Below, piece by piece: positions 2,570 through 21,964 of a DNA stretch of 64,000 bases. The position numbers and the translations under genes were made by a program. This DNA is from a virus. Taxonomy: Duplodnaviria > Caudoviricetes. The notes beneath the pieces are model-generated. The model had not been told where the DNA came from and did no database searches. It saw only the letters and a list, made by a program, of their open reading frames with translations. Numbering within the stretch: the stretch's first letter is position 1; every line of letters begins with the position of its first letter. The stretch is from positions 2,665 through 66,664 of the IMG/VR virus record IMGVR_UViG_3300031112_000372. The stretch is one strand, 5' to 3'.

Positions 2570-3238
2570 ATGAATAAACATGCCTTTTCCATAAGTATTA
2601 TGATTATAGGGTTAATTTTAATATTCCTACTTTTTAGTATTTTTGGAATTTTATATTTCTACTGGGGTAATGCTAAAGCCGTTCAAGATAGCCTTTCAAC
2701 TACTGGTAGTATATTCAGTGCAATTGCAACACTTGGTGCAGCCTGTGTTGCAGCTTTTCTATTTAATGACTGGCGAACAGTTCATTCAACTGAAAGTGAT
2801 ACTCAAGACGCAAAAAATCTTCAAAATACTATTTTTGCTATTAAGGGCCTTCTCGATAATGAAATGAACTTTATTGAAATACACTCAATTATGCTTAATA
2901 GTGAAGAGTTTAGAACTCAAGCTAAAATAAACATTGAAGAACTTCATAAAAGATATTGGCCACTCAGAGTAGATATGTCGCTGCAAATATCAATATTTAA
3001 TAATAATGTACTTAATGGAGATAAGCTTTTAGATAATAGTGAAGATATAATATTCCAACATTATTTTTATACTATTACCACCTTGCTTGAGGCAATCCAT
3101 TTAGGAAAACATGAATCTGATAAAATTTATTTTGGAAATTTACTAAATCATTGTAAAAACGAAGAAAAGATTATCTTTGATAACCTAGTTAACAAAATAA
3201 ACGATCTAATCTTAAAAAAGATTAAACCCATCAATTAA
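2570..3238 (+). CDS. Hypothetical membrane protein (N-terminal TM pair), cargo
   Basis: 222-aa ORF with hydrophobic N-terminus and ATLGAACVAAFLFNDWR segment. Confidence 0.75.
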   Translation: MNKHAFSISIMIIGLILIFLLFSIFGILYFYWGNAKAVQDSLSTTGSIFSAIATLGAACVAAFLFNDWRTVHSTESDTQDAKNLQNTIFAIKGLLDNEMNFIEIHSIMLNSEEFRTQAKINIEELHKRYWPLRVDMSLQISIFNNNVLNGDKLLDNSEDIIFQHYFYTITTLLEAIHLGKHESDKIYFGNLLNHCKNEEKIIFDNLVNKINDLILKKIKPIN

Positions 3239-3336
3239 GCCCTCCTCAAAGGGCTTTCACACAAATACCGATATTTACATTACTGTTGATCGTATGAGCT
3301 GTGCAGCCAGATAACAGAATATACAGCATTAAAGCC

Positions 3337-3654
3337 CTAAACATCGATCGGCACCATGTCTACCGTTTGCCCAGCTAATTCATGATGACAATCTGATAAG
3401 AATTGAATCTTTCCATCGGTCAAGAATAAGTGGCAGCGGCTTGCTGGATAATGGTCATTAACAAGTAATGAGGGTGTAAAGGTTGGCTTTTCAATATCCC
3501 CGTTAAAATTCCAGATGCTGCCGTTATGATGTGCGCCATCCTTCACATGGAATGGATGTAAATACTTACAACCGGGGCACTTAAACATATAAATGCCGCT
3601 GCTCCAGTATTCTAAAAATGGCGTGAGCTCAGTGACTGTTTCTGATTGAGTCAT
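3337..3654 (-). CDS. DUF6527-like phage protein (CPGC/His motifs) downstream of the endolysin
   Basis: FKCPGC...WNFNGDIEKPTFTPSLL...CHLFLTDGKIQFLSDCHH pattern. Confidence 0.7.
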   Translation of the reverse strand: MTQSETVTELTPFLEYWSSGIYMFKCPGCKYLHPFHVKDGAHHNGSIWNFNGDIEKPTFTPSLLVNDHYPASRCHLFLTDGKIQFLSDCHHELAGQTVDMVPIDV

Positions 3655-4200
3655 TCACATCACCACTCGATTATTGATCCAGCCATAAAAAAACTGTTCT
3701 TGTGAAGGATTGCATTCACAGATTTCAATGTAGCACTGGCCTTGCATAATATTAAGTACTCGCACTAATACTTTCTCTCCTTCTTTACCACGCTTAGACA
3801 GATAAGTTTTAAGTGCATTTAAAGTAGCTGGACCATAAACCCCATCAACTTTAAGGTCAGGCCACCCTGCTTTACCTTGGTTGTTAAGTAGATTTAATGC
3901 ACGCTGTAAAAGAGGTTTTGCAAAGCCGGTACCACAGTTCACGCCAGTATCTAAAAGCTCTTCTGCCACAGCAGAGTTAATCGAATTCACCTGGTCAAAA
4001 CGTGGAACTGTCCAATAATTCTTTCGGTAAATAGCTTTGGCCACATCAAGCGGCAAATCTTTCATATTGCCCTCAAACCCATTTATTCGGGCAACCGCTT
4101 CAGTAATACCGTATTTAGTTGCGCCTCCTCGATCGGCAGGATTATTTACATAACCACCTTCGCGTTTAATGAGTTCTTCAAGATATTGTTCAATGTTCAT
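3655..4200 (-). CDS. Endolysin, glycoside hydrolase family 108 with C-terminal peptidoglycan-binding domain
   Basis: EGGYVNNPADRGGATKYGIT motif. Likely start MNIEQ at 4200, not the track's 4350. Confidence 0.92.
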   Translation of the reverse strand: MNIEQYLEELIKREGGYVNNPADRGGATKYGITEAVARINGFEGNMKDLPLDVAKAIYRKNYWTVPRFDQVNSINSAVAEELLDTGVNCGTGFAKPLLQRALNLLNNQGKAGWPDLKVDGVYGPATLNALKTYLSKRGKEGEKVLVRVLNIMQGQCYIEICECNPSQEQFFYGWINNRVVM

Positions 4201-4259
4201 TTCACTTTCCTTTTGACGTAAAAAAGCCACCCGTAGGTGGCGCAGTTTTTTAAGTTGGT

Positions 4260-4409
4260 TCATGCTTTTATAGAAGCAATTATTACATCCAACTTCCACA
4301 TTAAGATTGGGATGGAAAACAAAAGAATAAATGCAATTATTGTTTGCCATAAGCCGTACTTTTCAATAGACACTTTTATAAGCTCCACTATTGGTTTAAA
4401 ATGCTCCAT
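4260..4409 (-). CDS. Unannotated 49-aa hydrophobic peptide (type I toxin-like)
   Basis: MEHFKPIVELIKVSIEKYGLWQTIIAFILLFSIPILMWKLDVIIASIKA*. AAGGAG RBS about 12 nt upstream. Below the ORF-track size cut-off. Confidence 0.75.
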   Translation of the reverse strand: MEHFKPIVELIKVSIEKYGLWQTIIAFILLFSIPILMWKLDVIIASIKA

Positions 4410-4485
4410 ATAGATATATCTTCTCCTTAATCTAGCTCTGGTTAAGTTGATAAAAAACCTCAGTGCTCCAACACTGGGGTTTTTG
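4409..4485 (+). ncRNA. Putative antisense sRNA across the RBS/leader of the 49-aa peptide
   Basis: Plus-strand -10 TAAAAT at 4397-4402; hairpin plus U-tract at about 4454-4485. Inferred, not demonstrated. Confidence 0.45.
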
Positions 4486-4596
4486 CTTTTTGATCATAGA
4501 AAACCTAGCTATGAGTATCCTCCGGCCCGATTTCCATGTAATAAAAAACCGCCCGAAGGCGGCTCTTGAGAAAAATCAGTTAATTCAATTTGTTTT

Positions 4597-5370
4597 TTAC
4601 AAAGCTGCTCCGCAAATATCCTTAGTACCTGATGGATAAGTTTGTGTAATTTTTGATTGATCCAGCAAGAACTCGATTGAGACATCTTTGTTCGCATCAG
4701 TTGCTGCTAAATCATAATAATTTGAAGTTAATGAAAAATATAGGTTATCTAGTTTAGAAGGGAAAGTTGCAAAATAGCCTTTGTTAACCCCATTAAAAAC
4801 TAAACCAACTTGATTAGAGTTCTGATTAATATAGATACCAATCTTTTGATAGCCATCAGAAGTAACTTCTGGAGCTAACTTAAATCCATTAGAAACCAAT
4901 GCATCATCATTTGATGTGGTTTGAAAATAGAAATGATTAGCTGTGGGTCCATGTTGGTAAGCAACTATGATATTCATAGCCTTACCGTTCTGCATAATTC
5001 CTGCTGCTAAAGCTGGAAAAATATTTACATATCCGGTATTACCTAATGTAGGAATTTTAATTTTATATTCAAAAGCTATAATTCCAGTGGTGGGTATTAT
5101 TTTGTCACCACGCGTATAAAGTGAAGCTTGATTATCATTTGCTGCTAATGCCCTTGTCAGATAATCCTGACTATAAGCCATATAAATCGGGCTTTGCTGA
5201 GACGTCTTATAGGAAAACTTATTTCCTGTAATAGTTGGGAACTTCTGAACAGAAGTATTACCTAAAGATTGTAACTGAGTTAATGTTGCATCAAAGCTAT
5301 AAGTACATTCTGCAAAAGCACTACTTATTCCACTGAAGCCCATTATTGTTGCTAAAATTATCTTTTTCAC
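4597..5370 (-). CDS. Secreted DUF4882-like protein (paralogue 1)
   Basis: Signal peptide, CTYSFDAT N-terminal motif and YPSGTKDICG C-terminus, both shared with 26313..27188. Confidence 0.7.
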   Translation of the reverse strand: MKKIILATIMGFSGISSAFAECTYSFDATLTQLQSLGNTSVQKFPTITGNKFSYKTSQQSPIYMAYSQDYLTRALAANDNQASLYTRGDKIIPTTGIIAFEYKIKIPTLGNTGYVNIFPALAAGIMQNGKAMNIIVAYQHGPTANHFYFQTTSNDDALVSNGFKLAPEVTSDGYQKIGIYINQNSNQVGLVFNGVNKGYFATFPSKLDNLYFSLTSNYYDLAATDANKDVSIEFLLDQSKITQTYPSGTKDICGAAL

Positions 5371-5488
5371 GGCTTTATCCTATTTTTATTTTGAACATTT
5401 AGTATAAACAAGTCTCTAAATATTTTAATTAAATCCGATAAATGATAGAAAAATAAGTGAACTATTTAATAATACCGCCCGAAGGCGG

Positions 5489-5878
5489 TTAACTATTTTG
5501 AATATCATCTTTGGCTTTTTTAACTTCTTTGATTACTTCAACAATTGTTTTACCTTCCTGTTTATCAATAAAGTTAAAGATCCAGCGGACTAAAGCCCAA
5601 CCTGGGATACCACAAATAAAGAAGAAGCCACCAAGTGCTATCATCCCCCATACATCAGTAACCCATTCATGAAGCCCCCACTTCACAATAATGAATGATC
5701 CACCTGCTAAACTTGATACGACTGTACAAATGAGCCCAACGGCCCATTCTTGAGGTGAGCGCGGCATACGTGTCATCAATACAACTGCTGCAACTAATGC
5801 GACCGCTAAAGTCACCATGATTGCCGCACCATAAAATTTTAAAATTGCTGTTAAACCACTAGTGGAAACTGGTTCCAT
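5489..5878 (-). CDS. Putative holin
   Basis: 129 aa, three hydrophobic helices, charged C-terminal tail, upstream of the endolysin in the late operon. Confidence 0.75.
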   Translation of the reverse strand: MEPVSTSGLTAILKFYGAAIMVTLAVALVAAVVLMTRMPRSPQEWAVGLICTVVSSLAGGSFIIVKWGLHEWVTDVWGMIALGGFFFICGIPGWALVRWIFNFIDKQEGKTIVEVIKEVKKAKDDIQNS

Positions 5879-5953
5879 TTATTTCTCCAGAAAATTTAGA
5901 CAATAAAAAGCCCTGTGCTATGAAGCAAAGGGCTTATGATGGGTTATTGAGTA

Positions 5954-7246
5954 TTAAGCTTGGTCTGTCCACGTTCCTGAGCGATCAAATGCCCACGTGG
6001 TAGCGTTAAGAGCAATTACGCGCAACTTACTACCCAAGGCATTACTTTCCATGTATTTGCCAGCTGCTTTACCGATAAAATTAGCCCCTGCATTCGGGAT
6101 GATTCGTAAATTTTGTGCAGTATCAATACCAAACTCGAAAGTTAAGCCCTTTGTCGGGACGGGAAGCGTGACATTTTGACTACCACTCGCACCAAAATTA
6201 GAGCAATAACCGTTTGAGTAAATAGTCGAAACAGTTGCCCCTATTAACCCAGTGATTACTCGTTTTTTAAAACCACTAAGTTCATTAAGGTTTGTATAAA
6301 CCATTGAGCCATTGCCTGAAGTTTTTGGTGTGAATATTCGATCGCCAGAATCCGAAATATCTTCACGGTGTTGTACTACAGATCCTTTGAACCAAAGCTT
6401 GGTAAAAGTACCTGTATGTCCACTTGGCTGACTAATACGAATTACATGGTTAGCAGCCTGCCATGCAGCATAATTTTCAGGAGCACCTTGGGCAGAGCGT
6501 ATTTGTCTCTTACCCACATTAAGCGTCACATCTTGGACCAGATCCATATTAATAGCCCACCCACCAGGCGAAATAGATTGAAAACCTCCTATCTTCAAGG
6601 TCTTAGTTGATGCCCCTTCTATACTATTTTTACTATCTAGAGCTTCCCCGTTCAATGCTATACCAATGTGAGCCGTAGCTGCATCAGTAACATCCCCACC
6701 AATTTGAAATGAATCAGTGATAGCTGGGTCATTAAATCGAAATAAAACCGACGAACGACACCCCCCAGTCCCTCGAAGGGCATCATTCTCAACGACAAAC
6801 GCTGGATGATACTTGCTACGAATGTTATACGTATTACCGTTTCGAGCGCCCCTCTCACCCTCAAAATTTTTAAAATACACTTGGCGAGAAGCTTGCCATC
6901 TTTCGGCTTCGGGTATCGTGTATCGGCTCTCATACCCTGAATCATCAACAACAACACAATTGTCATTCATTGCTGCATAGACTGCACTAGGATTTGATGT
7001 AGCACTCCACTTTACATTGCGCGGAATATATAGGGCTTCCCCTTCAGATAATTGAGACAGAGCATTCAATATAAGAGCTGTGTGGTCAGTTGTTTGGTCT
7101 GCTAGAACTGTTCCAAACTCACGAAGATCACGCCAATGAGCATAACCGTGTGCCAAAGTTACATTATTTATTTCATGTTGGTTTTTATCGCCATCAATTA
7201 CATCAGTTGCATTTACTGTAGCCATTGCATTACCTCTTAATTGCAT
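5954..7246 (-). CDS. Tailspike/receptor-binding-like protein with a pectate-lyase-3-like N-terminal motif
   Basis: DLREFGTVLADQTTDHTALILNAL resembles the VKDFGAxGDGxTDDTxAIQxAL motif. Lies between tail tip and holin. Start may be MATVN (7225). Confidence 0.5.
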   Translation of the reverse strand: MQLRGNAMATVNATDVIDGDKNQHEINNVTLAHGYAHWRDLREFGTVLADQTTDHTALILNALSQLSEGEALYIPRNVKWSATSNPSAVYAAMNDNCVVVDDSGYESRYTIPEAERWQASRQVYFKNFEGERGARNGNTYNIRSKYHPAFVVENDALRGTGGCRSSVLFRFNDPAITDSFQIGGDVTDAATAHIGIALNGEALDSKNSIEGASTKTLKIGGFQSISPGGWAINMDLVQDVTLNVGKRQIRSAQGAPENYAAWQAANHVIRISQPSGHTGTFTKLWFKGSVVQHREDISDSGDRIFTPKTSGNGSMVYTNLNELSGFKKRVITGLIGATVSTIYSNGYCSNFGASGSQNVTLPVPTKGLTFEFGIDTAQNLRIIPNAGANFIGKAAGKYMESNALGSKLRVIALNATTWAFDRSGTWTDQA

Positions 7247-7474
7247 TTAATTGGAAGCATTATTTAAATCTCTAAATAATTTAGTTTTATGAATTTTTAG
7301 AACTATGGAGTTTCCCGATATTAAATCCACCTTATTTACGATCAATAATAAAATCAAAAGCTTGGTTAAAATCGACCAATATGAGATTTTTTAAATGTTT
7401 CTTTTGGTTAACTCTTAGTTATTAAATTTTAGATTTGTCTAGAATGTTAAAGTAGCTGTTAAGGAGAGCATATT

Positions 7475-8404
7475 ATGAAAAATAATATTATACGGACTAT
7501 ACCAATTTTTTTATGCTTTTTACTAAGCGCATGTGGAGAAGACAATGATGAGCAGTTTCCCCCCTCAAAAAATGCCATAAATAGTCAATTGACTTTAATA
7601 AAAGACAACACGTCATTCTCATTAAGAGTCAAAGAAGAAACAAATGATACTGAACAACCTGTATATTTGTATAAACAAGGCTTCCTCAAAAACAACAATT
7701 TATTCGAACCATCTGAAAATCAATTGGAATACAACTTCTTGTTAAAAGATCAAAGTAATAATAATCACATATATAAAATTACACTGCGATATAAAAGCAA
7801 TGACTTTAATAACCAACCTATCGGTATTGAATTTATTGACCAGACAACTAATTCAACCCAAGTATTTAATTGTAGCTCTATAGCATATCCTTGTATAAAC
7901 ATCACTACTGCAGTAGATAAAAATACAGGTAAAAGTGAAGTCAAGTTTAATAAAACGAATCTTAGAAATACACAGTCCACAATTGAAGTTAACGGAAGTA
8001 TTGTCGGTGAACTTGTTGTTAATCCTCCTAATATTAATGTCATCTCAAGTAGCAATCAGAATCATGTATTAAATATATATGATAATAATGGAAATTTTCA
8101 AAGTACTTTAGATGGAAAGCTTCAATTCATACAGTTTATTAATCATAATATTATGAATTTCAATACAGGATCATCTAATATTTATGATTTTATTAGGGTA
8201 AAAACAATAAATAATAAAGTTACAGATTTTGAACTTATAAGTAACATTGATCCTAATAGTAGCCGTAAAGTTGATCCAAACTCATTTGATAAATTCCTAT
8301 ATAATCCTAATACTTATATTTTTAATATTACCCAACCGAACTTGACCTATTATGACTCCGCAAGTTCAAGCAACCAGTATATTGAAGGTAACCTTGGTCC
8401 TTAA
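7475..8404 (+). CDS. Lipoprotein cargo gene (moron), opposite to the late operon
   Basis: Lipobox LSAC at aa 16-19; Asn-rich and AT-rich; flanked by hairpins. Confidence 0.8.
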   Translation: MKNNIIRTIPIFLCFLLSACGEDNDEQFPPSKNAINSQLTLIKDNTSFSLRVKEETNDTEQPVYLYKQGFLKNNNLFEPSENQLEYNFLLKDQSNNNHIYKITLRYKSNDFNNQPIGIEFIDQTTNSTQVFNCSSIAYPCINITTAVDKNTGKSEVKFNKTNLRNTQSTIEVNGSIVGELVVNPPNINVISSSNQNHVLNIYDNNGNFQSTLDGKLQFIQFINHNIMNFNTGSSNIYDFIRVKTINNKVTDFELISNIDPNSSRKVDPNSFDKFLYNPNTYIFNITQPNLTYYDSASSSNQYIEGNLGP

Positions 8405-8479
8405 GTTTTAAGTCTGATTAAGCTAAAAATTAAAATCATTAAAGCACCCTGTATGGGTGCTTTAAGCTCTTTAAAAGTA

Positions 8480-11400
8480 TTAAAGGGTCTGTAAAATTTT
8501 CCCTCCATTTAATAATTTAGTTGTAAGAGGTGCGACTCCGACAATTGCGGTACCGCCAGCACCCGGTTGCCCTTCAGTTGTGCCGTGGTAATTCCAGTTC
8601 CATGTTCCATCGTTGGTAGACTTGGTGCCACGCTGGCCCCATCCACCACCATCACCCGACAATGGAGATCCATAACGATCATTCTGAGTACGGTATCCTT
8701 TACCTGGCATCTCAGCTTCAGCATCAGTGACTTTTACCACCATGAAACTATCAATAAAGTACCACCGCCAGTCCTGAGTATCATTGTAGATCGGCTGTCC
8801 TGTCATAACCCGTCCAAATGGTGCCCCAGCACCGCCAGGAACACCTTGCACTCCATAGCCAAGTTCAGTGTAGATGCCACTTGGTGTAGCACCTCCACCA
8901 GACCCGCCACGAGCCAGTGTTCCGCCATCAATGATCAGGTTCAATTTGCTGTGCCGGTTCTTTAAACCTGGTGCACCCTGGAACCCATCACGCCGCGACC
9001 TGGTAAAGTTATAATTTGGATCACTTGACCAGGCACTAAATGCCAAATGTGGCAATCCACCATCACCACCACGCCCGACCACAGAACCTTTGATTGTAAG
9101 ATTTACAGTAAGGCCAGAAGGAAATTCTCCCGTATCAATTGCAGCTATTTCTGGAGCAGCAGGAACAATAAACTCTTTTGTCTCGTAATTATTAGTATGC
9201 TTGTAAACCATTCTGGTTTCCGCTCTAAGCGAACTCGAACTCGAAACCAAAGCACCAGCTTCAACTACAAAACTAATTTTGCCTGTGGTTGGCAAATCAC
9301 CTCTTTGCATCTGATATAGACGTGCAAGATTAATATCTAGCTGGTCATATCGAATGTAGATTGGTGAATCATCAACTGGCACATCAATAAAGTCTTTATC
9401 GTTGAGGTAATAACGCACATCGTAATTTACTGCAGTTATCGTATTTGAGAATTGATCAACAGGATCTTTCTTTGCAACCAGATAAGGCAGAGAATCTTTC
9501 GTATCATCATTAACGACTGTATAAATCGTATTAACGAAATCATCAGAACTTAGTTTGAGTGCACCGTTTGGTAAGCGACCTAGTACAACTTTGTTCTTAG
9601 CAGATCCAGCAGTAACAGAAATTAGATCAACAGTACCATCTCCCATTTGCAGATAAATCACATAACTCTTGCCTGCAATGAAATCGACATCATGGCTCAA
9701 TGTAAGAATTAAGCCTTCTTGCTGCACTACCTCACCGCTTTGATGAATTCCATTTCTATAATCAGCTACAGCAATACGGTCACGTAAAACCAGCAATTCA
9801 GACTCAGGTGCTGCATCAAAGGTGATGGACTTGCGCTGAAAGCGAAGCTTGTTCCAAAGCCGGTACGCATTGAAATGCGCTTGCCACTTATTACGCACGC
9901 CTACCGATTTCACCTCTTTTGGATTCTTGGCTCCTTTATCCGGCAAGTAGATATTGATACGGCTATCATCGGTCGGATCCGTATATTCATAGATCAGGCC
10001 ATCGTAATCGTCCATTACACCAAAGGTCAGATCATGCTTATAACTATCAGGGATGATATTCCTGAAGTTAAACAGCAACACCGAGTTATCTGTTGGCCGT
10101 TCAAAATAGATCTTGAGCTTATTGTTTTGCCGGTATGCTGTACAAAACACAGCATCACAAAGGTTAGTGACCAGTTCTTCAAACGAAAGATTGGTATCAT
10201 CAATGGTAGTACAAAATTCTGCAGCTAACGATGTACCGAAGTAGTCGACAATATCGATATAAGTACGATAGATATTTTCTATATCAATTTCGTCAATCGT
10301 ACGGCGTCCGATTTTGTCATCCAACGCCATTGAGACCAGTGCATCAGCAAAGCTTGACGTTGGAAATAACTCCGTCGTCATTGCTCCATTCTTATATGTT
10401 GGCAACATCCGCTGAAGATCAAAATTGATCTTGCGCGACTTAACTGCAAGCGCACCTGTAGTTGCATAAGTACGTGCACGAAAAACCGTTTCATACTCAT
10501 ATTTAGTGCTTTGCAGCGGGAATGCTCCGTAAAGTGCTTGCCACTTCACCTCATCAACTACACTTTCAACAGCCGGTGTAGGTGTTAAACGGCGTGCACG
10601 TACACTGCAGCGTCCTTGGAATGTGACCATATCCAGCGTTGCACCAATAGTTTGTCGTGACTTGGCAGAACCCTTGAGAATGATCTGCTTTAGCATTGGA
10701 TTGCCAATGGCTGCACCCGATTCATTCACCGGCGTGACCTCAACTTCAAGCGTAACGTTTACAGCTGCCTGATTGCCGCCTGCTGATACCGTATAAAGCC
10801 CATTACTGGCTACAAAGTTAAAAATGACACGACTACGTTCAATGTTGTCCAGAATGAATGGACCAATCCATTTCTCACCAATCGATGCAAGCTTTGGAGA
10901 TAAAGCACCTGTTTGTTGGTTACTGAGTTCTTTTAGCTTTAACCAGTTTGGATTAACTGCAGCAGGATTTGATAACGTCATGCGATCATCAGCAACGGAT
11001 AAGACGCTATAAGTACCGTTTAAATCGTATGTTTGCCCGTTATAGGTAAATGAAGCATTAGTGATTTCAACACGGTCATTGCTGACAAATTTAGTCGTTA
11101 AATCGGTATTGTTTGCAGCTGCTCGAAGGATCTCATTTGGATAAGCAAAAATAAGATAATTAGTGCCTTCCAGACTTTGAGTATCAGCTGGTCGAAGGAT
11201 CTGGCCATTCACTGAGTTTTGATGCTGAACACTTAAAGGTGGTGTGGTAATTTCGGTACCAAGTGAAAAATAAGGCTGTCCAGAAACAATATCAACGCCT
11301 GGTCGGAAGACTTCTACTGATGCCCCGGCAATATCAACAATATTGGTTTCACCATCGTATGCACCATTAATTTGATAGTGGCCACGACCAATACAACCAA

Positions 11401-11911
11401 CAATATGCTCAACTTCAACATTATTTTCATAAACCTTATAAGGCACAGCAATCAGATCAGGTGTATTCCATCCAGCACCATAGTTATCTGTAATGCGACC
11501 ATTTACCCTCATCTTATTTTCACGATTTGAAAGTTCGTTATTTGCAGATGAGGATTGGTTGTTATTCTGATTGGTTTGAGCAATCGATGGTGCGGGCATT
11601 AAAAATGCAACCGCCACACTTAAAACAATAGAAACGATTGCCGCAATAAGTGCAGGCATACCTTTCGGGTTTTCAATCACAATAAAAGTGCCAGGTAAGA
11701 AATCGAGCTGTTTTAAGTCATGAGCATTCTTAGGTGTAACTTCATTGGCAAACGAAATTTCCGCATGATCCATATTGCTTGATGTATGAAAAATACGGAC
11801 ATGCTCAGGCATAGATTCATATTTGGAAGTTAGCCATTGCCCTATGGTGTGAGCATGTTCCACTGTCTTTTCTTCAGACAAAGGATCCTGTTTATAAATA
11901 ATCTTAATCAT
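8480..11911 (-). CDS. Tail tip / host-specificity protein (lambda J-like)
   Basis: 1143 aa, follows the NlpC/P60-like and minor tail genes; Gly-rich C-terminal region. Confidence 0.85.
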   Translation of the reverse strand: MIKIIYKQDPLSEEKTVEHAHTIGQWLTSKYESMPEHVRIFHTSSNMDHAEISFANEVTPKNAHDLKQLDFLPGTFIVIENPKGMPALIAAIVSIVLSVAVAFLMPAPSIAQTNQNNNQSSSANNELSNRENKMRVNGRITDNYGAGWNTPDLIAVPYKVYENNVEVEHIVGCIGRGHYQINGAYDGETNIVDIAGASVEVFRPGVDIVSGQPYFSLGTEITTPPLSVQHQNSVNGQILRPADTQSLEGTNYLIFAYPNEILRAAANNTDLTTKFVSNDRVEITNASFTYNGQTYDLNGTYSVLSVADDRMTLSNPAAVNPNWLKLKELSNQQTGALSPKLASIGEKWIGPFILDNIERSRVIFNFVASNGLYTVSAGGNQAAVNVTLEVEVTPVNESGAAIGNPMLKQIILKGSAKSRQTIGATLDMVTFQGRCSVRARRLTPTPAVESVVDEVKWQALYGAFPLQSTKYEYETVFRARTYATTGALAVKSRKINFDLQRMLPTYKNGAMTTELFPTSSFADALVSMALDDKIGRRTIDEIDIENIYRTYIDIVDYFGTSLAAEFCTTIDDTNLSFEELVTNLCDAVFCTAYRQNNKLKIYFERPTDNSVLLFNFRNIIPDSYKHDLTFGVMDDYDGLIYEYTDPTDDSRINIYLPDKGAKNPKEVKSVGVRNKWQAHFNAYRLWNKLRFQRKSITFDAAPESELLVLRDRIAVADYRNGIHQSGEVVQQEGLILTLSHDVDFIAGKSYVIYLQMGDGTVDLISVTAGSAKNKVVLGRLPNGALKLSSDDFVNTIYTVVNDDTKDSLPYLVAKKDPVDQFSNTITAVNYDVRYYLNDKDFIDVPVDDSPIYIRYDQLDINLARLYQMQRGDLPTTGKISFVVEAGALVSSSSSLRAETRMVYKHTNNYETKEFIVPAAPEIAAIDTGEFPSGLTVNLTIKGSVVGRGGDGGLPHLAFSAWSSDPNYNFTRSRRDGFQGAPGLKNRHSKLNLIIDGGTLARGGSGGGATPSGIYTELGYGVQGVPGGAGAPFGRVMTGQPIYNDTQDWRWYFIDSFMVVKVTDAEAEMPGKGYRTQNDRYGSPLSGDGGGWGQRGTKSTNDGTWNWNYHGTTEGQPGAGGTAIVGVAPLTTKLLNGGKILQTL

Positions 11912-12266
11912 AGTAACTGACCCGACTAAACCCCATTGCTCTGATAACGTCTTCAGCTAAATAAGTGACCCCACCTTCCATTAGATGCAGTACACGACCT
12001 AAACGAAAAAGCCCCACATGTGGGGGCTTATTTCTTTGTCTTGGATGGAAGGCGACAATGCAGCCCTCCTTCGGCATGGGCAGCGGATTTAAAAGTTTTA
12101 ATCTTGATGGTAGGAATGTAATTTTGCCCTTAGGTTGCATAAATAAATCCAAAGCTTCACTACGATCTATACCGTAGAGATCCATTGCAGCTTCATGGGC
12201 AAAATGAACGCAGTTGTACTGCTCTTCGTCATATTGCTTATCAAGCAAATGATCATGACTTTTCAT
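11904..12266 (-). CDS. Tail assembly protein, NlpC/P60-like (lambda K-like)
   Basis: YNCVHF...PHVG catalytic Cys/His pattern; position in the tail module. Confidence 0.75.
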   Translation of the reverse strand: MKSHDHLLDKQYDEEQYNCVHFAHEAAMDLYGIDRSEALDLFMQPKGKITFLPSRLKLLNPLPMPKEGCIVAFHPRQRNKPPHVGLFRLGRVLHLMEGGVTYLAEDVIRAMGFSRVSYYD

Positions 12267-12769
12267 ACAGCCCCCTTCAGACCACTAAAGCGATCCAGTG
12301 CAAAAATATCTCCCGTCTTCGCGGTATTTAATCGTGGTGATTCAGCCTTGAATGTCACAGCTTTATGGTTCATTGATATGCCTGAAAGTTTCAGTCCTAA
12401 CAAATAATGGATTGGTGTATTCACGTTGTCCGAACTATAGAGTCGATAATTTACGGTAGGCTTAACGTCTGAATATTGCCCTTCAATTACCCTTTCAAAC
12501 TCATCCGGCAAGACATCCCCAAGTCCTGAAATTGAAACAGTTAAGGTCTGGTCCAGATCCCCTAGCATTCCAGATCTTTGGATAGACATAGGTAGGTATT
12601 CATAAAAGACCTGTCCTGATCCTTCTTTATGCTGGACATAGACACCCTGATCATTGTTGCGAACAACCCGATATATATTTAGAAAAGATGGATGTGATAA
12701 CTCAATACACTCCAGTTGGTAGATATCGACTTTGCGATTGAGAAAGAACTTGGCATATTCGTTATCCAT
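12263..12769 (-). CDS. Minor tail protein (DUF1833-like, lambda L position)
   Basis: Synteny; likely start MDNEY at 12769, overlapping the upstream stop. Confidence 0.7.
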   Translation of the reverse strand: MDNEYAKFFLNRKVDIYQLECIELSHPSFLNIYRVVRNNDQGVYVQHKEGSGQVFYEYLPMSIQRSGMLGDLDQTLTVSISGLGDVLPDEFERVIEGQYSDVKPTVNYRLYSSDNVNTPIHYLLGLKLSGISMNHKAVTFKAESPRLNTAKTGDIFALDRFSGLKGAV

Positions 12770-13167
12770 TAGACCTCCCAATCTTTAATCAATACTGCAT
12801 CAGCTGTAAGGTTTGGCTGATTCTGAATAACTTCTAGCTGGGCAGTTACCCGGTAAAGATTGCCATTCACTTCGTTGGTCTTAAACGAGTTCGGAATAAA
12901 ATTGCATTGGTATTGCTGGCGTGCTCCTTGGTCAATGACTAAATCCGCATAAAACGAGGCTGGCTTGTTCTGATAGACACGCCAGAAAGCCATCATTTTG
13001 TTGAAATCAGTTTTACTTAAATTCCAGTTCACATCGACAATATGGCTATTACGCTTCACATCAATGTAATAGCGTCCACGTCCTCCATCCATCTGCTGAC
13101 GCTTTACATCATCACCTGGTGTTACGCTATAGCCATTTGTTTGAGGATTTAGCTTCAACTTGTACAT
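12769..13167 (-). CDS. Minor tail / distal tail protein (lambda M position)
   Basis: 132 aa immediately after the tape measure gene in the tail order. Confidence 0.7.
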   Translation of the reverse strand: MYKLKLNPQTNGYSVTPGDDVKRQQMDGGRGRYYIDVKRNSHIVDVNWNLSKTDFNKMMAFWRVYQNKPASFYADLVIDQGARQQYQCNFIPNSFKTNEVNGNLYRVTAQLEVIQNQPNLTADAVLIKDWEV

Positions 13168-13228
13168 AACTTTCCTTCAGGCAATAAAAAACCGCCCGAG
13201 GGCGGTACCAAAAGATAAGAACTATTTA

Positions 13229-13390
13229 TCAATCATCATCGTTATCTTTCCTAATAGCTTTAATTATTTCAGGTGATTTCCAAGCAAAAATGCATAGAAG
13301 CACTGAGATAAGTATAAATATTAACGTTCCAATAGGTAAACTTGATGCCATATTGATCAATCCTGTAATTGCTATGATATAATCTGTCAT
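13229..13390 (-). CDS. Unannotated 53-aa hydrophobic peptide (type I toxin-like)
   Basis: MTDYIIAITGLINMASSLPIGTLIFILISVLLCIFAWKSPEIIKAIRKDNDDD*. AAGGAG RBS. Same leader as 4260..4409. Confidence 0.75.
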   Translation of the reverse strand: MTDYIIAITGLINMASSLPIGTLIFILISVLLCIFAWKSPEIIKAIRKDNDDD

Positions 13391-13465
13391 AAGTAGTTTC
13401 TCCTTAACTTTCGCTGGTTGAGTTGAATTGAAAACCTCAGTGCGCCAACACTGGGGTTTTTGCTT
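13390..13465 (+). ncRNA. Putative antisense sRNA across the RBS/leader of the 53-aa peptide
   Basis: Extended -10 TGaTATAAT at 13375-13383 on the plus strand; hairpin plus U-tract at 13431-13468. Inferred. Confidence 0.5.
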
Positions 13466-13707
13466 TTTAAGTGCCCTTATTATTTCATTTCAAAAAAGTG
13501 TCATTTATTCATTTTTCCTACTTTGGAAAACATAGGTATAAAAAAACCACCCGAAGGTGGTCCTTTCATAATATTGACTGTCAATATGTTTTAGAAGAGA
13601 CTAGACGATTACACTGTCAATAGCTCTTCTTTCCTCATACCTGTATCTTTAAAAGGTTTTAGTTACACATCGCTAACATTATCCTCTCTTATACGTGTGC
13701 TCCTAAA

Positions 13708-16700
13708 TTAACGGTTCCGTCTTGCGGTCGTATTCTCAGTCAAAGAGCGGCTAATAGTTGAGTTCGGATTTTTAATATCCTCACTTACCAGTTTCGGTAC
13801 CGCTCTTGGAAGCTGCTTATCCAGTTCATCTTTAACAATGATCCGAACTGTTTTCTCATCCAATTGTTCAGCCTCAACTGTTGCCCCTTTTACCTGATTA
13901 ACTACTTCAATCTTGAAATTGATAGTCGGTGAAGCAGGTTCGATTGAAGGCATAATCTCAGCTTGAGGACGTAAAGATTGTCCTAAAGTGAAATCTTGTA
14001 CATCATTGAGATTTGATCGATCCTGAACTAAACCATTTGAAGAAAAGTAAACCTTTCCGTCATGGAATAAATCTGAATTAGGAGATTTACCAGCATTTGT
14101 ATTGCCTTTATAAATAATCTGGCCATCCTGAACCGGTTGATTAAAGATGTCAGATTGCTTTTGACTTTCCATAAAGGCATTAGAGCTCATCAATGCACGG
14201 CGCATGACACTATCAGTTGAGACATTGTTATTGAGGAAAACTTCAGGGTTTGAACTCTTACGCATTTTCTCAACTAAGCCAACTCCACCCCAACGGCGAA
14301 TATCCTCTTGGGACCAAACAACCTCTCCCTTATGAACAATGCCGGCAGGTTCGTATTTGCCACCTCGCCCAGTAAAACCACCATCAGCAAACCCTTGATC
14401 CTTAATTGCGCGGATATTTGCAATAATGCTGGCACCTTGTGCAACGGCCCCAGCAATCAAAGGCAAGTTGTAAGGAAAACCAACTTTTGAAGCTGCTGCG
14501 ATATTCTGCTGAATCGCAATACCGGCAGCTGCAATTGCATAAGCTTTATCTGCAGCGAACATGAGCTTGTAAGCTTTAGATTGTTCACCAAACATTGAGC
14601 CAAACATCGAGGTAACTGAACCCATCATTTGCCCACCAAGAGCAATCTGAGCGTTTAATCTATCTTGTTGATACTTTTCTTCAACATCCTTAACGTTCTG
14701 AGCATAATCACTGTAAATTTGACTTCGTTGCTCTTGAGCAGCTTGAATGATCGCGGTTTTCTGGTTCTCGAAGTCCTGTTGCTGAATTAATCCAGCTTCC
14801 ATTTGTGCATTCAGATTGTCTAAACCATTTTGTTCGTCTAAATCAGCTGCTGCATATTGGCTATCAGCTAAGTCATTGGCAGCGCCCAAGCGGCTAAACC
14901 GTTCCTGATCCTGTCTATAGAACTCACTGGTACCATTCATATCAGCCTGAATACCACCCCAGTTTTGAACAGCGTTATTCACCTTATCGCGTGTCTCTTT
15001 GTCCTGAGTAGCTTTAGATAATGCGATTAGTTTTTGACGCTCTTCAATAGAAAGCTTTGTATTCTTAAGAATCTCCTCTCGTTCGAGTCTATATCGCTCC
15101 TGCATGGCTTGAGTTTCGGAAAGTAGAGATAAGCGAGCTTGAAATAAGCGTTGTTCTTGGGCCAACTTCATAAGCGCGTTTTCTTGCTGATATTGCTGTT
15201 CCAGCAATTCCACTGCCTGTTTCCGTTCAGACTTAGTTAATTCAATATCATGAGCCGCATTAAACTTTTTACGGTTAAAACTCTCTTCAAGTAATGCAGC
15301 TTCGGTTTTCTGGAACTCCTTATAGTCCTCTAGCTTGCTTCGAATCGCTTGTTTGGCGATCGCAATATCATTGTCTGCACGACGATTTAATTCCGCCTTA
15401 ATTTCAGCAGTACGTTCAGGACTGAAATTAGCTTTGTCCACCTCCCCTAATCTTGTCTTTCTATTATTGTCAATACGCTCAACTTCAGTGGCTACTTCAT
15501 TTTCAAGTGATCGTTGTAAGTCTTGCTGACGATCAAGTTGCGACTGAATATCACCAGAAGCTTTATCACTTCCCTTACTAGCCCCACCTTTAACCTTGCT
15601 TTGCATACTTGGTGACTGGTGAAGAAGTTTTAGTGATACACCATCCTCAAATATCACCTCACTAACATAACCACCACCTTTACTATCGTAGTGGGTCTTA
15701 ATGTCTTTCACAGCAACATTAGTCGTGATCGGCGTACCTTCAGGCATTGAAAAATCAATACCCTTATGAAATGAAGAAGCCCCTTTGGTAGGGGCTTTTC
15801 GTGGACCGTAATTTGAACTGATCTTGTAGGATGACAATGGTTTGCCGCCTGCTTGTAATCGGGCTAGATGTTCATTCGATACTTTCTGGCCAGACATTGA
15901 ACCACCATATCGAACGTCGAGATGAGGACCTGTGCCAATTCCTGACTGGCCTGAAACACCGACTAATCGTTTCGAAAGTTTTTGCTGTTTTGATAACTCA
16001 TTAGTTGTTTCCTTTAATGCTTTATTCTTCGCATCAATCACATTCTTGTTTTGTTCCTCTATCGAAAGAGTCTGCAAACCAATCTGATATAATTCATTAG
16101 AAACTTCAACTCCGCTTTTCCGCGCCCAGCTTGCAGTTTCAACCATTTGCTTCACTTGCTCAGGTGAGTAACCTTTGGCAAGTAAACCTTTGGTAACTAA
16201 TGCTTCAAATTTACGATCTGCCAATGAATCGGCATATTGCTTTTGTGCATTTTTAGCAGCTAATGCAGCCCTTTCATTCTCATTCAAGGACTTGGTGTTT
16301 TTATCCACTCCTACGATAGCATTTTCAGCTTTATTTCCTGCAAGTGTTACCTCAAAACCAAATAAGCTATACGTTTGCTTGGTCTTGGCAGCAGTTTCAG
16401 CTGCCTCATCATAGGCATTCACTTGTTTAAGCAATGCATCCATTAAATCAGCAGGAATTTTTTGACTCTTTAATTGCTCTATCGCTTCAGTATATGAAAT
16501 GGTGCCAAGTCTGGCCTTATTCGAAATTTCAGCAACTTTGGCATTGCCCACCGCATAGTTCTGGATATTGATCAATGCTGAACCGACCGCTAATTCTTGC
16601 CGTTCTAATGCCTTGTTTTGATCTTCAATTGTCGCAGCTAAATCACCTAATTTTTCTTTACGCTGTTCATCATTAAGGGCTTTAATTTCTTCCTTAGTCA

Positions 16701-18186
16701 ACTTTGCAGCTTCAGCTTGCTCTTTTAGCTTTGCAGTGGCTTCAGCAGATTTACTAGAGAAATACATGTAAGTCGCAGCCAAAGCAGTCACGCCTAATGT
16801 GATTGCCCCAATTGGACCACCAATCAATCCCCATGCACCGCTCACTAATCCTGCCATTGAAGCACTTTTGCCTTGCGCTAACGTAACGGCCTTCGTTGCA
16901 TTCTCAACATTATTAGCTGCAAGTACATATCTGGCACTCGCTGCACTTGCTCCAAATCTGGCTTGGGTTTCAGCATTTGTTGCTCGCACATTCACCAAAT
17001 GTGCCTCAGCTTCTGCAAGCGCAGCTTTTGCGCTTTCTATCGCCTTTTGCTTTTGCAATTGTGATGCAGCATTGTCAGCAACTAAAGCCCCTAATTTGGT
17101 ATTTAAAGCTGATACTTGAGTTGCGATTGCTTTGGTAAGTAATGCTGTACCACCGAGAATAGCTACATAAGAGATTGATTCTAAGTTTTCAGCTAAAACC
17201 TTAATTGAACCAGATAAAACGTTAGCTGCACCACTTCCTTGACTAGCCTCGCCGACAAATTTAGTAATCTCATTATTAAGAAGAGTTAATGACTGGCTGA
17301 TCGTAATATCAGTTTTGCCAAATAATGCATCTACATCAGACTCTACATTTCTTAAGGCTTTCACAATTTCTTGCGATGTGATTTTTCCTTCAGCAGCAAC
17401 CGTACGCAACTCTCCTACGGTAATACCCATACCCTGAGCAATAGCTTTTGCTAAAGCAGGTGTTTGTTCCATGACAGAGTTCAGTTCCTCACCACGTAAG
17501 GTACCACTCGCTAAGGCTTGTCCGAACTGAACTAAAGCAGCATCTGCCGCAGAAGCACTCGCGCCACTAATCGCCACAGCTTTTGAAACAGTTTCAGTTA
17601 AACGCGCTGTATCATCCATTGTTAGATTTAAAGATTTAGCATTATCACTAAATCTTTGATAAACCTGTAAAACAGAATCCCAGGCTGAATAGGTATTTTG
17701 AGCAATCCTGAATGTATCTTCAGTCGCCTTATTTAACTCCGTCTGGTCTTTTGTAACTAGCTTTAAACGGTTTTGTAGTCCTGTATAAGCATCTATTTGA
17801 CCAATTGCAGCATTGACCGTAGCCAAGCCTGCCATATATCCAGCCAAAGCTTTAATTGACGTACCGAATAAGTTAGCCGCTTTATCCTGTTTATCCAGCT
17901 CATTGGTTGTAGCTTTAATTTCTTGAGCAAATTTATGATTTTGTTGAGTTGCTTGTTTAGTCACTTCAACCGATTTTTGAACAGACGTATTGGAATTATT
18001 AACTGTGGTATTAAAGTTTTGAACAATGTTATTAGTAACAGAAAGCTGTTTCCCCATATCTTTCGATGAGTTAGATGCGGAATCACCTCGATCAGTAAAT
18101 TTTGACAATTCTTCTGCTAAGGCTTTGACATTACGTTCAGCATTCTGTGAATCAATAACAATGACCAGACGGGATTCTTGTGCCAT
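13708..18186 (-). CDS. Tail tape measure protein with an embedded M23-type peptidase domain
   Basis: 1492 aa, Ala/Gln-rich helical; tape-measure N-domain (QFGQALASGTLRGEELNSVMEQ); HKGID and GTGPHLD motifs. Confidence 0.93.
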   Translation of the reverse strand: MAQESRLVIVIDSQNAERNVKALAEELSKFTDRGDSASNSSKDMGKQLSVTNNIVQNFNTTVNNSNTSVQKSVEVTKQATQQNHKFAQEIKATTNELDKQDKAANLFGTSIKALAGYMAGLATVNAAIGQIDAYTGLQNRLKLVTKDQTELNKATEDTFRIAQNTYSAWDSVLQVYQRFSDNAKSLNLTMDDTARLTETVSKAVAISGASASAADAALVQFGQALASGTLRGEELNSVMEQTPALAKAIAQGMGITVGELRTVAAEGKITSQEIVKALRNVESDVDALFGKTDITISQSLTLLNNEITKFVGEASQGSGAANVLSGSIKVLAENLESISYVAILGGTALLTKAIATQVSALNTKLGALVADNAASQLQKQKAIESAKAALAEAEAHLVNVRATNAETQARFGASAASARYVLAANNVENATKAVTLAQGKSASMAGLVSGAWGLIGGPIGAITLGVTALAATYMYFSSKSAEATAKLKEQAEAAKLTKEEIKALNDEQRKEKLGDLAATIEDQNKALERQELAVGSALINIQNYAVGNAKVAEISNKARLGTISYTEAIEQLKSQKIPADLMDALLKQVNAYDEAAETAAKTKQTYSLFGFEVTLAGNKAENAIVGVDKNTKSLNENERAALAAKNAQKQYADSLADRKFEALVTKGLLAKGYSPEQVKQMVETASWARKSGVEVSNELYQIGLQTLSIEEQNKNVIDAKNKALKETTNELSKQQKLSKRLVGVSGQSGIGTGPHLDVRYGGSMSGQKVSNEHLARLQAGGKPLSSYKISSNYGPRKAPTKGASSFHKGIDFSMPEGTPITTNVAVKDIKTHYDSKGGGYVSEVIFEDGVSLKLLHQSPSMQSKVKGGASKGSDKASGDIQSQLDRQQDLQRSLENEVATEVERIDNNRKTRLGEVDKANFSPERTAEIKAELNRRADNDIAIAKQAIRSKLEDYKEFQKTEAALLEESFNRKKFNAAHDIELTKSERKQAVELLEQQYQQENALMKLAQEQRLFQARLSLLSETQAMQERYRLEREEILKNTKLSIEERQKLIALSKATQDKETRDKVNNAVQNWGGIQADMNGTSEFYRQDQERFSRLGAANDLADSQYAAADLDEQNGLDNLNAQMEAGLIQQQDFENQKTAIIQAAQEQRSQIYSDYAQNVKDVEEKYQQDRLNAQIALGGQMMGSVTSMFGSMFGEQSKAYKLMFAADKAYAIAAAGIAIQQNIAAASKVGFPYNLPLIAGAVAQGASIIANIRAIKDQGFADGGFTGRGGKYEPAGIVHKGEVVWSQEDIRRWGGVGLVEKMRKSSNPEVFLNNNVSTDSVMRRALMSSNAFMESQKQSDIFNQPVQDGQIIYKGNTNAGKSPNSDLFHDGKVYFSSNGLVQDRSNLNDVQDFTLGQSLRPQAEIMPSIEPASPTINFKIEVVNQVKGATVEAEQLDEKTVRIIVKDELDKQLPRAVPKLVSEDIKNPNSTISRSLTENTTARRNR

Positions 18187-18321
18187 TTTACTTTTCTCCA
18201 GGCAATAAAAAACCCACTCATTGAGTGGGTCTATTTAAGTTAAATATATTTACTAAGCTGGACAGTTAAACAAATTTAGTCTTGCTGCAAATCGTTGCCC
18301 AAGTGCTTTTAAATCCATTCA

Positions 18322-18864
18322 CTAATCAATCAATTTCACACATTTAGCAACAACATCCTGTGCATACAATCCCTTATCCTTGAAATTACTGTTATATGCA
18401 CGATCGATATCTTTTAAGCCTTCTTCAATTTCTGCTTTTGATGCATTTTTGTCTGTTAGTATTTCAGTCCTTAAACTTTCTTTGGAAACCCCTTTAAGCC
18501 TTGCATCCATTATGAGGGACTGATTGTATGCATCCTTGACACAATTACTGCGATCTTTTACAGATAACTTATTCGGAGTACAGTGTGCTTCCCAAATTAT
18601 TGCAAATGTTTCTGGATCAATACCCTCTGAGTCCTCCAATAAGACTGCACCCTCAATGGTTACATATTTCTTAAAGCCAACATAACCGCCATAGCTATTC
18701 TTTGAATTTACTTCTCCACAATATCCTTTTATATTTTGGAATTGTGCTGAATCTGGATCTTTTAAAGTGTTTAAGACAGCTTCTTTGGACTCTTTTTCCA
18801 CCTTTGAGCAACCGTTCACCCCCACTACACCTAAAACCAAACTCAATAAAATAATCTTTTTCAT
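18322..18864 (-). CDS. Exported/lipoprotein-like cargo protein
   Basis: Hydrophobic N-terminus with NGC; LKDPDSAQF...CGEVNSKNSYGGYVGF motif. Confidence 0.7.
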   Translation of the reverse strand: MKKIILLSLVLGVVGVNGCSKVEKESKEAVLNTLKDPDSAQFQNIKGYCGEVNSKNSYGGYVGFKKYVTIEGAVLLEDSEGIDPETFAIIWEAHCTPNKLSVKDRSNCVKDAYNQSLIMDARLKGVSKESLRTEILTDKNASKAEIEEGLKDIDRAYNSNFKDKGLYAQDVVAKCVKLID

Positions 18865-18890
18865 ATTAATTAGCTCACTTAAGAGGCGCT

Positions 18891-19427
18891 TTAATTATCT
18901 AAACTTTTAACAATATCATCCAAATACCAGTCCTTTGCAAAAGTATTTAAGTCTTCCATCTGCTTACCCATTACACCCAACAAACCACCTTCCCATATAC
19001 CATAAGCATGCTCACCATCTAACCTATAAACATTCTCTGGCATGGTTCTTAGGGTATAAACAGGATTTTGAAACTCATACTCTTTTCCAAGTGTCTGGAA
19101 ATACTCTCCTTTCAGATAGAACTTATCATCTCCTCTAAAACCGAGATAAACTTTGTTAAATTCCTTATCTTTTATTTTCTCAGCAAATTGTAGTAGAACC
19201 CTGTTTACATCTAATGGGCTATTTTTCCCTGATATATCCCGCAAATCATATTTAAGCTCTGTCGGATTAATAAACCACTTATAGTGAACCCAGACTTTAA
19301 CCCCTTTATTTCTGGGATCCTCTAACAATACTGTATTCATATGCCGTTGAAGCATGTAATAATTTAGTGAAAAAACAATAGCAACAAAACCAACTAATAC
19401 CACAATGAATTTATATACCTTAGACAT
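18891..19427 (-). CDS. Membrane-anchored cargo protein
   Basis: Single N-terminal TM helix, 178 aa. Confidence 0.7.
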   Translation of the reverse strand: MSKVYKFIVVLVGFVAIVFSLNYYMLQRHMNTVLLEDPRNKGVKVWVHYKWFINPTELKYDLRDISGKNSPLDVNRVLLQFAEKIKDKEFNKVYLGFRGDDKFYLKGEYFQTLGKEYEFQNPVYTLRTMPENVYRLDGEHAYGIWEGGLLGVMGKQMEDLNTFAKDWYLDDIVKSLDN

Positions 19428-19429
19428 AG

Positions 19430-20002
19430 TTAAATCACTTTCTCTGCATTATTAAACTTTGAAGTATCAAACTTGAATTGACGAGTTCCATTCGAATAAA
19501 AAGATAGCTCAACCATTAGTGAATTAACTTTTCGAATATTGTCTAAAAAAGCTTTAGAATTTTCAGTAAAAATTAATATAGTGCCATCACTACCAGATGT
19601 CTCATATTTTTGGAAATTAAGATATTGAATTGGGCTATTTCCAAACTTAACTGCTGTATAACAGTAATCATTACAGTCATACTGGCCTTTATCTATTGTT
19701 AGAAATATTTTTGGGTCATCTGATTTAGAGTCAAGAATATCAAATTGGAGTTTATTCTCCCCGTCATAAGGAAAGTTTAGATCAGCATTATTCTCAGAAC
19801 GCAAAGCAAGCCACTTAGACTCTGTGTTCCGCATTTCATCTTTGCTAACTACAGTTCGCCATTTCCCTGTTTGAGATTCAAGACTTGAGTCATTTGTATT
19901 GCTACTAACGCTTGAGGCTTTTTTAGCATTATCACTGTTACTACAGCCGATCAAACCCAAAAGAACACTTAAAAATAATATTTTTTTCAAGTTTTTCACC
20001 AT
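19430..20002 (-). CDS. Lipoprotein cargo, homologous to 33648..34241
   Basis: Lipobox LIGC; shared PY...LT...G...C...C...KF...NG...FD pattern. Confidence 0.75.
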   Translation of the reverse strand: MVKNLKKILFLSVLLGLIGCSNSDNAKKASSVSSNTNDSSLESQTGKWRTVVSKDEMRNTESKWLALRSENNADLNFPYDGENKLQFDILDSKSDDPKIFLTIDKGQYDCNDYCYTAVKFGNSPIQYLNFQKYETSGSDGTILIFTENSKAFLDNIRKVNSLMVELSFYSNGTRQFKFDTSKFNNAEKVI

Positions 20003-21929: not shown

Positions 21930-21964
21930 ATAAGAATATTCTGGTGGCTCCGGAATGTGTCCAC

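Follow-up and report, generated by a model that had tools for sequence, protein, structure and literature searches.

A predicted antisense RNA cassette over small membrane-peptide genes in the late operons of Acinetobacter temperate phages

In the sar/ant system of phage P22 and the RNA-OUT/RNA-IN system of IS10, a short antisense RNA (~69 nt) is made from a promoter just inside or next to its target gene, and it pairs with the ribosome-binding site (RBS) and start codon of a gene that is harmful if expressed at the wrong time. SymR likewise has its promoter within the first codons of its target gene and is ~77 nt long, similar in size to the RNA described below. Temperate phages also carry morons, which bring a sense promoter of their own and are expressed in the prophage state; those of the HK97 gp15 type are small membrane proteins inserted among tail genes. 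In the SymE/SymR system of Escherichia coli, the RNA extends over both RBS and start codon and acts on translation, which it blocks, rather than on mRNA stability (PMC4147584). The Ibs/Sib and Hok/Sok systems combine small hydrophobic peptides with translation-blocking cis-antisense RNAs, occur in paralogous copies and are linked to mobile elements (PMC4147584). By analogy of architecture, the locus examined here appears nearest to SymE/SymR and next to Ibs/Sib and Hok/Sok, with P22 sar/ant and IS10 RNA-OUT also close.

The window, that is, the whole 64-kb stretch of DNA that was analysed, makes up most of a 66.6-kb IMG/VR provirus whose nearest annotated relatives belong to the genus Vieuvirus (temperate siphoviruses of Acinetobacter baumannii). 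The locus of interest, module 1, lies on the minus strand, where a putative holin gene is followed by a DUF4882 gene with its terminator, a hairpin element, an AAGGAG sequence, a 49-codon ORF, a bidirectional terminator and the endolysin gene. A paralogous cassette, module 2, lies elsewhere in the window. The features are as follows.

5489..5878, minus strand: putative holin of 129 aa with three hydrophobic (TM) segments, phrog_1024
4597..5370, minus strand: DUF4882 protein of 257 aa with a signal-like N-terminus, directly upstream of module 1
4543..4563, minus strand: intrinsic terminator of the DUF4882 gene, CCGCC-TTCG-GGCGG followed by T6
4454..4491, plus strand: terminator of the predicted antisense RNA, identical with the 38-nt element; a 12-bp stem followed by U5GCU5
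4422..4450, plus strand: stem-loop 1, with the anti-SD CUCCUUAA at its 5' foot and arm
4409..4491, plus strand: predicted antisense RNA of ~80 nt, from folding, covariance model R1 and strand comparison
4423..4428, minus strand: Shine-Dalgarno AAGGAG, 13 nt before the ATG and inside the span of the predicted antisense RNA
4397..4402, plus strand: antisense -10 hexamer TAAAAT, within codons 3-5 of the peptide gene, no TGn
4375..4380, plus strand: weak -35-like TTTATA, 16 nt upstream of the -10
4260..4409, minus strand: peptide gene, 49 aa plus stop, from translation, PHROG 35629 match and AlphaFold2
4220..4241, both strands: bidirectional terminator closing the module 1 cassette, 20 nt before the endolysin RBS
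3655..4200, minus strand: endolysin (GH108 and PG_binding_3), directly downstream of module 1
13229..13470, minus strand: module 2, the paralogous cassette, with a 53-aa peptide, the same leader and an R1 score of 78.7 bits

An earlier sequence-only reading of this DNA had placed the module between holin and endolysin. The endolysin is indeed its downstream neighbour, but the gene directly upstream encodes the DUF4882 protein, and the likely holin lies one gene further up. The DUF4882 gene, which has terminators on both sides and sits between the putative holin and the endolysin, looks like cargo in a lysis-cassette hotspot. At another locus (L131), a member of the putative holin's family, phrog_1024, directly precedes a cassette and the endolysin.

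The hydrophobic ORF named in that reading was recovered as described: 4409..4260(-) translates into a 49-aa peptide with one hydrophobic span, residues 20-38. It is, however, neither hidden nor unannotated, since it matches PHROG 35629 over its full length ('membrane protein', moron category; E 2.5e-36, residues 1-49 on profile positions 1-49 of 49) and is annotated as 'putative membrane protein' in Ab105-2phi (ORF91) and A1626.2. The AlphaFold2 model, built from a 28-sequence alignment, has helices at residues 5-18, 20-38 and 40-48 with a mean pLDDT of 92.6; these are predicted to be an N-terminal amphipathic helix, a transmembrane helix and a short C-terminal helix, respectively. The family motif W-K-L-[DP]-x-I-I-x-x-I-K falls within the C-terminal helix, and the C-terminal tail is short, with a net charge of +1. 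Among the 24 distinct nucleotide versions of the gene, divergent pairs have dN ~0.1 and dS 1.1-2.1, and with dN/dS at ~0.05-0.1 the protein is evidently under strong purifying selection, so that the ORF is a real, selected gene.

A profile search of 1.8 billion representatives returned only 21 clusters (50% identity), all of 35-69 aa, and this superfamily is characterized by the C-terminal motif TM-W-[KRQ]-x-P-E-[IL]-[IL]-x-A-[IL]-[KR]. The same motif connects the 49-aa and 53-aa peptides of the window through intermediates such as L049. Pairwise BLAST between the two peptides is not significant; given the common C-terminal motif and the intermediates, we take the module 1 and module 2 peptides to be distant paralogs rather than unrelated. 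At fewer than 60 aa and with a hydrophobic, transmembrane character, the 49-aa peptide is what one would look for in a type I toxin. It has no Pfam match at E<0.01, known type I toxin families included, and relaxing the threshold to E up to 10 added chance matches only, e.g. TraQ and bCoV_NS6; the Pfam profiles of the type I toxin families Hok/Gef, Ldr, TisB, Ibs, ShoB and Fst all fail to match it. PADLOC gave only a weak 2TM-TIR match (E 0.013) in two of eight members, attributable to the TM segment, and neither the ESM Atlas clusters nor a BFVD fold search with the AlphaFold2 model yielded an informative relative of the peptide.

The RBS claimed for the gene is present as AAGGAG at 4428-4423(-), at a long spacing of 13 nt from the ATG, and TAAGGAG or TAAGAGG is kept in all leaders compared. 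The leader repeat reported earlier is likewise real: 13431-13468 holds a second copy of the 38-nt element at 4454-4491 that differs from it at one position. The 66.6-kb provirus has no further copy, and 100 shuffles gave 0 matches. Over their whole length the two leaders are 72% identical (63 of 87 columns); identity is lower over the 5' part (56%) than over the terminator (90%). The 53-aa ORF of module 2 lies between the tape-measure gene and a minor tail gene.

Read on the plus strand, the leader of module 1 is predicted to encode an RNA in three parts: an unpaired 5' tail that is complementary to start codon and spacer, then stem-loop 1, then an intrinsic terminator. The whole 83-nt predicted RNA folds with an MFE of -24.1 kcal/mol (z -4.6); on the sense strand, the leader of the peptide mRNA has no significant structure (z -1.6). 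In the window, stem-loop 1 has a folding energy of -6.6 kcal/mol on the plus strand versus -2.5 kcal/mol on the minus strand, the latter no better than shuffles, and the terminator has -15.6 versus -13.3 kcal/mol. The hairpin's U-tract had been said to face the plus strand; T-runs occur on both strands, but perfect pairing is confined to the plus strand. On the minus strand the 38-nt element forms a weaker hairpin with a C.A mismatch and U6, and so read it is also a partial barrier before the peptide gene.

Comparison of related leaders bears on which strand is folded. The comparison drew on leaders of 80 viral loci with the 49-aa family and 4 with the 53-aa family, and on three annotated phages whose peptides are of other kinds. 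The hairpin was found in every leader variant, with stems that differ by compensatory changes (CCCCAGTG/CACTGAGG, CCCCAGTAG/CTACTGGGG, CCCCGATG/CATCGGGG and CCCTCGA/TCGAGGG). Where a stem is imperfect, the pair is throughout G.U on the window plus strand and C.A on the peptide strand. In an 18-sequence alignment, 99.5% of terminator helix cells are paired on the antisense strand versus 92.1% on the sense strand, with compensatory changes in 5 pairs, and the corresponding values for stem-loop 1 in 18 leaders are 88% versus 59%; 7 pairs show double changes, and the covariation score of 0.358 exceeds all 500 shuffles and every slid control, although, the aligned leader sequences being related, paired-cell counts and covariation overstate the number of independent events. 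The RNAalifold consensus has -17.7 kcal/mol on the antisense strand versus -11.5 kcal/mol on the sense strand, and stem-loop 1 appears on the antisense strand only. Rfam 15 gave 0 matches at the gathering score in the 64-kb window. At four loci (L019, L038, L045 and L091, ~1440-1470) the loop and inner stem of the hairpin are exactly reverse-complemented and the outer stem keeps its orientation (GTG-CGCCAA-CAC compared with GTG-TTGGCG-CAC; window 4461-4478 and 13438-13455), which looks like a template-switch inversion within the hairpin.

The covariance model R1 comprises 85 positions and begins at the start codon, so that none of the proposed promoter lies inside it. In the window R1 finds two cassettes only, both on the plus strand, with 93.8 bits for module 1 (4406-4491(+)) and 78.7 bits for module 2; the overlapping reverse-strand match at module 1 scores only 32.4 bits. 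In a covariance search of 151 Acinetobacter species genomes, of the kind suggested by the sequence-only reading, R1 has matches at E<=1e-4 in 37, and a single genome (G124) contains as many as six copies. The matches precede at least nine families of peptides of 37-59 aa that have a hydrophobic span and quite different N-terminal residues. In the plasmid search, the matches were ~50-kb Acinetobacter replicons resembling phage genomes, plus one chromosome filed there; outside phages, the cassette thus occurs only on such phage-sized ~50-kb replicons.

Several individual loci deserve mention. Two cassettes with different peptide families stand in tandem, ~380 nt apart, at L144:1124-1587 (= L102:1037-1500). 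Phage Abau_Attikon1 (L006:1230-1492) has a version of the cassette with two peptides in an operon: a single leader is followed by membrane-peptide ORFs of 52 aa and 35 aa that share 4 nt, and the second (35-aa) ORF has the SIPILIWKLD motif, the same as module 1. Premature stops beside an intact RNA element were found in two species (n=2). In A. courvalinii (L097:1300-1530), Gln22 of a 49-aa family copy is changed to a stop (70.6 bits), and a 39-aa family copy (L130:1480-1720) has a stop at codon 19 (68.6 bits); both retain the RNA element and the -10. Nonsense mutation of the peptide gene beside an intact RNA gene is how a cassette would be expected to decay if its peptide were costly, and these two cases are weak evidence in that direction.

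The plus-strand -10 proposed earlier is where it was placed: TAAAAT occupies 4397-4402, its last base 7 nt ahead of the start codon's A (4409). Across the cassettes, an extended -10 (TGnTAnnnT) lies <=22 nt upstream of R1 on the RNA strand in 20 of the 33 matches, against 1.7% of same-size windows in the same loci, an enrichment of ~35-fold; examples are TGaTATAAT, TGcTATAAT, TGaTAAAAT, TGtTAAAAT, TGgTATTCT and TGgTAAACT. Module 2 has TGaTATAAT at 13374-13382(+). A -10 hexamer is present in all nine peptide families, in seven of them with TGn. It ends 4-13 nt, mostly 7-10 nt, before the A of the ATG, which puts the predicted transcription start at or beside the start codon. Within the module 1 family the hexamer is TAAAAT, with TAATAT in F4I variants and TAGAAT in a relative. 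To judge by its motifs, the module 1 promoter is the weakest and least convincing of the families, with no TGn and a poor -35; the -35-like TTTATA is not conserved, codon 11 being ATA in some sequences and ATG in others. Codons 3-7 of the peptide gene, which overlap the hexamer, show no synonymous change among the 24 distinct sequences, and synonymous variation affects 4 of the 11 codons at positions 2-12 versus 30 of 34 later codons (Fisher p 0.0016), a deficit to which translation-initiation constraints could contribute.

No conserved sense promoter, whether -35/-10 or extended -10, was seen upstream of the hairpin in the 27 leaders inspected, so that the promoter for the toxin mRNA that is usual in type I systems is lacking from the cassette. 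In the commonest layout, the terminator of the upstream gene abuts the predicted RNA terminator, ending ~10 nt before it. In this window 45-65 nt separate the upstream terminator from the hairpin, and the -10-like TATGAT at 4498-4493(-) is weak and without a credible -35. Among the sampled loci, every cassette that could be placed lies inside the phage late region and is co-oriented with it. Some stand ahead of the endolysin or of a minor tail gene, others next to the tape-measure gene or to BRO/antirepressor-type cargo, and others between the major tail and chaperone genes. Of the 80 copies of the 49-aa family, 41 stand directly before a GH108 endolysin gene, and 38 are followed by a 115-aa gene and the tape-measure gene. 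A gene like Ab105-2phi ORF90 (L003:1840-2787), annotated as alpha/beta hydrolase or BRO N-terminal domain, stands immediately upstream of the 49-aa cassette in 66 of the 80 loci and at both genomic positions, which suggests that the two form a two-gene mobile unit.

The co-directional late region of the window, 3000-22900(-), contains at least seven sense-direction intrinsic terminators, and late transcription must therefore read through. The Q-type antiterminator profiles PF06530 and PF03589 have no match in the provirus; PF06323 has none either, but its control was also unmatched, which makes that search uninformative. Many terminator tails of these phages have a TTTTTTA[AT]TACC-like ending in common. 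RNA-seq data came as contigs from three runs of other strains; the one run with a related prophage, from a relative ~90% identical, carries no strand or end information. Two of its contig ends, at 4431 and 13422, are tagged with Illumina adapter sequence and fall in the leaders between RBS and hairpin. They could reflect abundant RNA ends or processing there; as they do not coincide with the predicted RNA ends, we gave them no weight.

The plus-strand RNA put forward in the sequence-only reading, running from the start codon over the RBS to the hairpin, thus has strong comparative support, from strand-specific pairing, a conserved -10 and suppressed synonymous change. In sequence terms, the antisense RNA has a defined anatomy of conserved promoter, strand-specific structure and terminator, the signatures of a small pairing RNA gene as found in type I modules. 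We consider it probable that the cassette is a portable control element of Vieuvirus-like late operons in which the antisense RNA locks a harmful late membrane peptide. For the function of this element, we infer the transcription of the RNA, the repression, the source of the sense transcript and the toxicity of the peptide as follows. The sigma-70-type -10 inside codons 3-5 would start a plus-strand RNA of ~80 nt at the start codon, which would cross the spacer, the Shine-Dalgarno and ~45 nt of leader and stop at its own intrinsic terminator (4454-4491). Because this RNA is perfectly complementary to the translation-initiation region, we propose that it blocks ribosome binding; the sense-antisense duplex would probably also be exposed to RNase III. 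The peptide mRNA would arise solely by read-through of upstream late or cargo transcription across one or two terminators, and it is accordingly proposed that constitutive antisense RNA silences this leak in a lysogen. Antisense RNA and the sense-strand version of its own terminator would together prevent peptide synthesis in the lysogen. In the lytic cycle, heavy late transcription would out-titrate and interfere with the antisense promoter, and the peptide would be made. Untimely production of the peptide probably harms the membrane, and this would account for the double lock. Since the sampled cassettes are all co-oriented in late operons, the peptide probably belongs to the late products, with the RNA as its lock. 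The cassette may thus work like a type I module while being a gated late gene rather than an addiction module. With no toxin promoter and no known toxin or RNA family, it is best described as a putative variant of the type I plan.

Classical addiction looks less likely. A type I toxin-antitoxin system for addiction or abortive infection would keep a stable peptide mRNA and an unstable antisense RNA in the lysogen, and prophage loss, or a transcription shut-off by an infecting phage, would free the toxin. Much of the architecture fits, namely a small TM peptide with a cis-antisense RNA over RBS and start codon, several paralogous copies per genome (up to 6) and nonsense-mutated peptide genes beside an intact RNA gene, and here 45-65 nt, with the -10-like TATGAT at 4498-4493(-), separate upstream terminator and hairpin. 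A sense promoter is nevertheless not conserved, and the commonest layout has abutting terminators. The cassettes are found in phage late operons only and always co-oriented, the 'plasmid' matches are just phage-sized ~50-kb replicons, and the peptide matches no known toxin family; we therefore regard this explanation as unlikely. Still more doubtful is an ordinary moron, that is, an accessory membrane protein, lysogen-expressed or late, with a role such as superinfection exclusion or lysis and with no regulatory RNA. The hairpin would then be a bidirectional terminator or insulator and the -10-like sequences by-products of AT-rich N-terminal codons. The PHROG category (moron, membrane protein) agrees with this, the cassette is flanked by terminators as morons are and fills the slots of HK97 gp15-type morons, and the hairpin is a competent terminator on both strands; as the sense strand still reaches -13.3 kcal/mol with U6, it could be mainly a terminator or insulator. 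What speaks against a plain moron is that families whose residues differ share a ~35-fold enrichment of TGnTAnnnT at a fixed spacing from the start codon, and that an insulator needs neither a stem-loop 1 on the antisense strand only nor the G.U versus C.A asymmetry of several independent stem variants.

The small RNA could also be the main product, a trans-acting phage sRNA on host or other phage transcripts, those of the sister cassette included, with the overlap with the peptide secondary. The near-identity of the 38-nt 3' part in both cassettes while the remainder has diverged, the conservation of a GGTTGAGTTGAAT-like stretch 5' of the terminator and the persistence of RNA elements next to broken peptide genes would all suit such an RNA. 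Yet what is conserved on the 3' side is a terminator, Rfam has no matching family, and the predicted RNA start tracks the start codon in all nine peptide families, which argues for coupling to the translation-initiation region; we hold a trans-acting role to be very improbable. The 49-aa peptide itself may be a holin, though this reading is not favoured: 41 of the 80 copies come directly before the endolysin but 38 lie by tail genes, there is a separate 3-TM holin candidate, the C-terminal tail, typically charged in holins, is short with a net charge of +1, and a terminator intervenes before the endolysin. To go by the same positions, the cassette may have a part in lysis timing, as the sequence-only reading also suggested, but almost as many copies sit with tail genes.

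Taken more broadly, and more tentatively than the reading of a locked late peptide at this locus, the cassettes may represent an undescribed 'antisense lock' of Acinetobacter temperate phages: a portable RNA gene (~85 nt) with a translation-initiation region, recombined with at least nine peptide families, whose lethal peptides would be freed when late transcription overwhelms the lock. No description of the cassette was found in the literature searched on Acinetobacter type I toxin-antitoxin systems, prophage sRNAs or the hairpin sequence, and two AB5075 interactome papers mention no toxin or prophage RNA. The cassette is a well-defined candidate, strong on computational grounds, with a covariance model ready for use; roughly one in four of the sampled Acinetobacter species genomes has it, as do phages used for phage-therapy research, e.g. 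Ab105-2phi derivatives. Its promoter-less late-operon design suggests an antisense RNA serving as a safety catch on phage late membrane peptides, a design that bears on lysis timing, prophage stability and the silencing of phage cargo, and it indicates that one regulatory leader can be shuffled among unrelated coding sequences.

SymE is a 113-aa soluble nuclease-like protein with its own promoter and LexA control, whereas module 1 encodes a 49-aa membrane peptide, has no recognisable promoter and lies in a phage late operon; the two show no sequence relationship. With Ibs/Sib and Hok/Sok the cassette shares a hydrophobic peptide, a predicted cis-antisense RNA, several paralogs and an association with mobile elements. 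Sib covers the whole ibs ORF, whereas the predicted RNA of the cassette covers the translation-initiation region and leader only, and Sok acts on the mok leader of the long, structured and stable hok mRNA, unlike the cassette with its sense leader that lacks significant structure. The likeness to HK97-type morons lies in a terminator-bracketed small membrane gene between tail or lysis genes of a temperate siphovirus; the cassette differs from them in having no conserved sense promoter and, instead, a conserved antisense one. The targets of P22 sar and the IS10 RNA are an antirepressor and a transposase, and those of the cassette are membrane peptides. Finally, P22 sar and IS10 are single loci, whereas the cassette is portable and has been reused with many ORF families.
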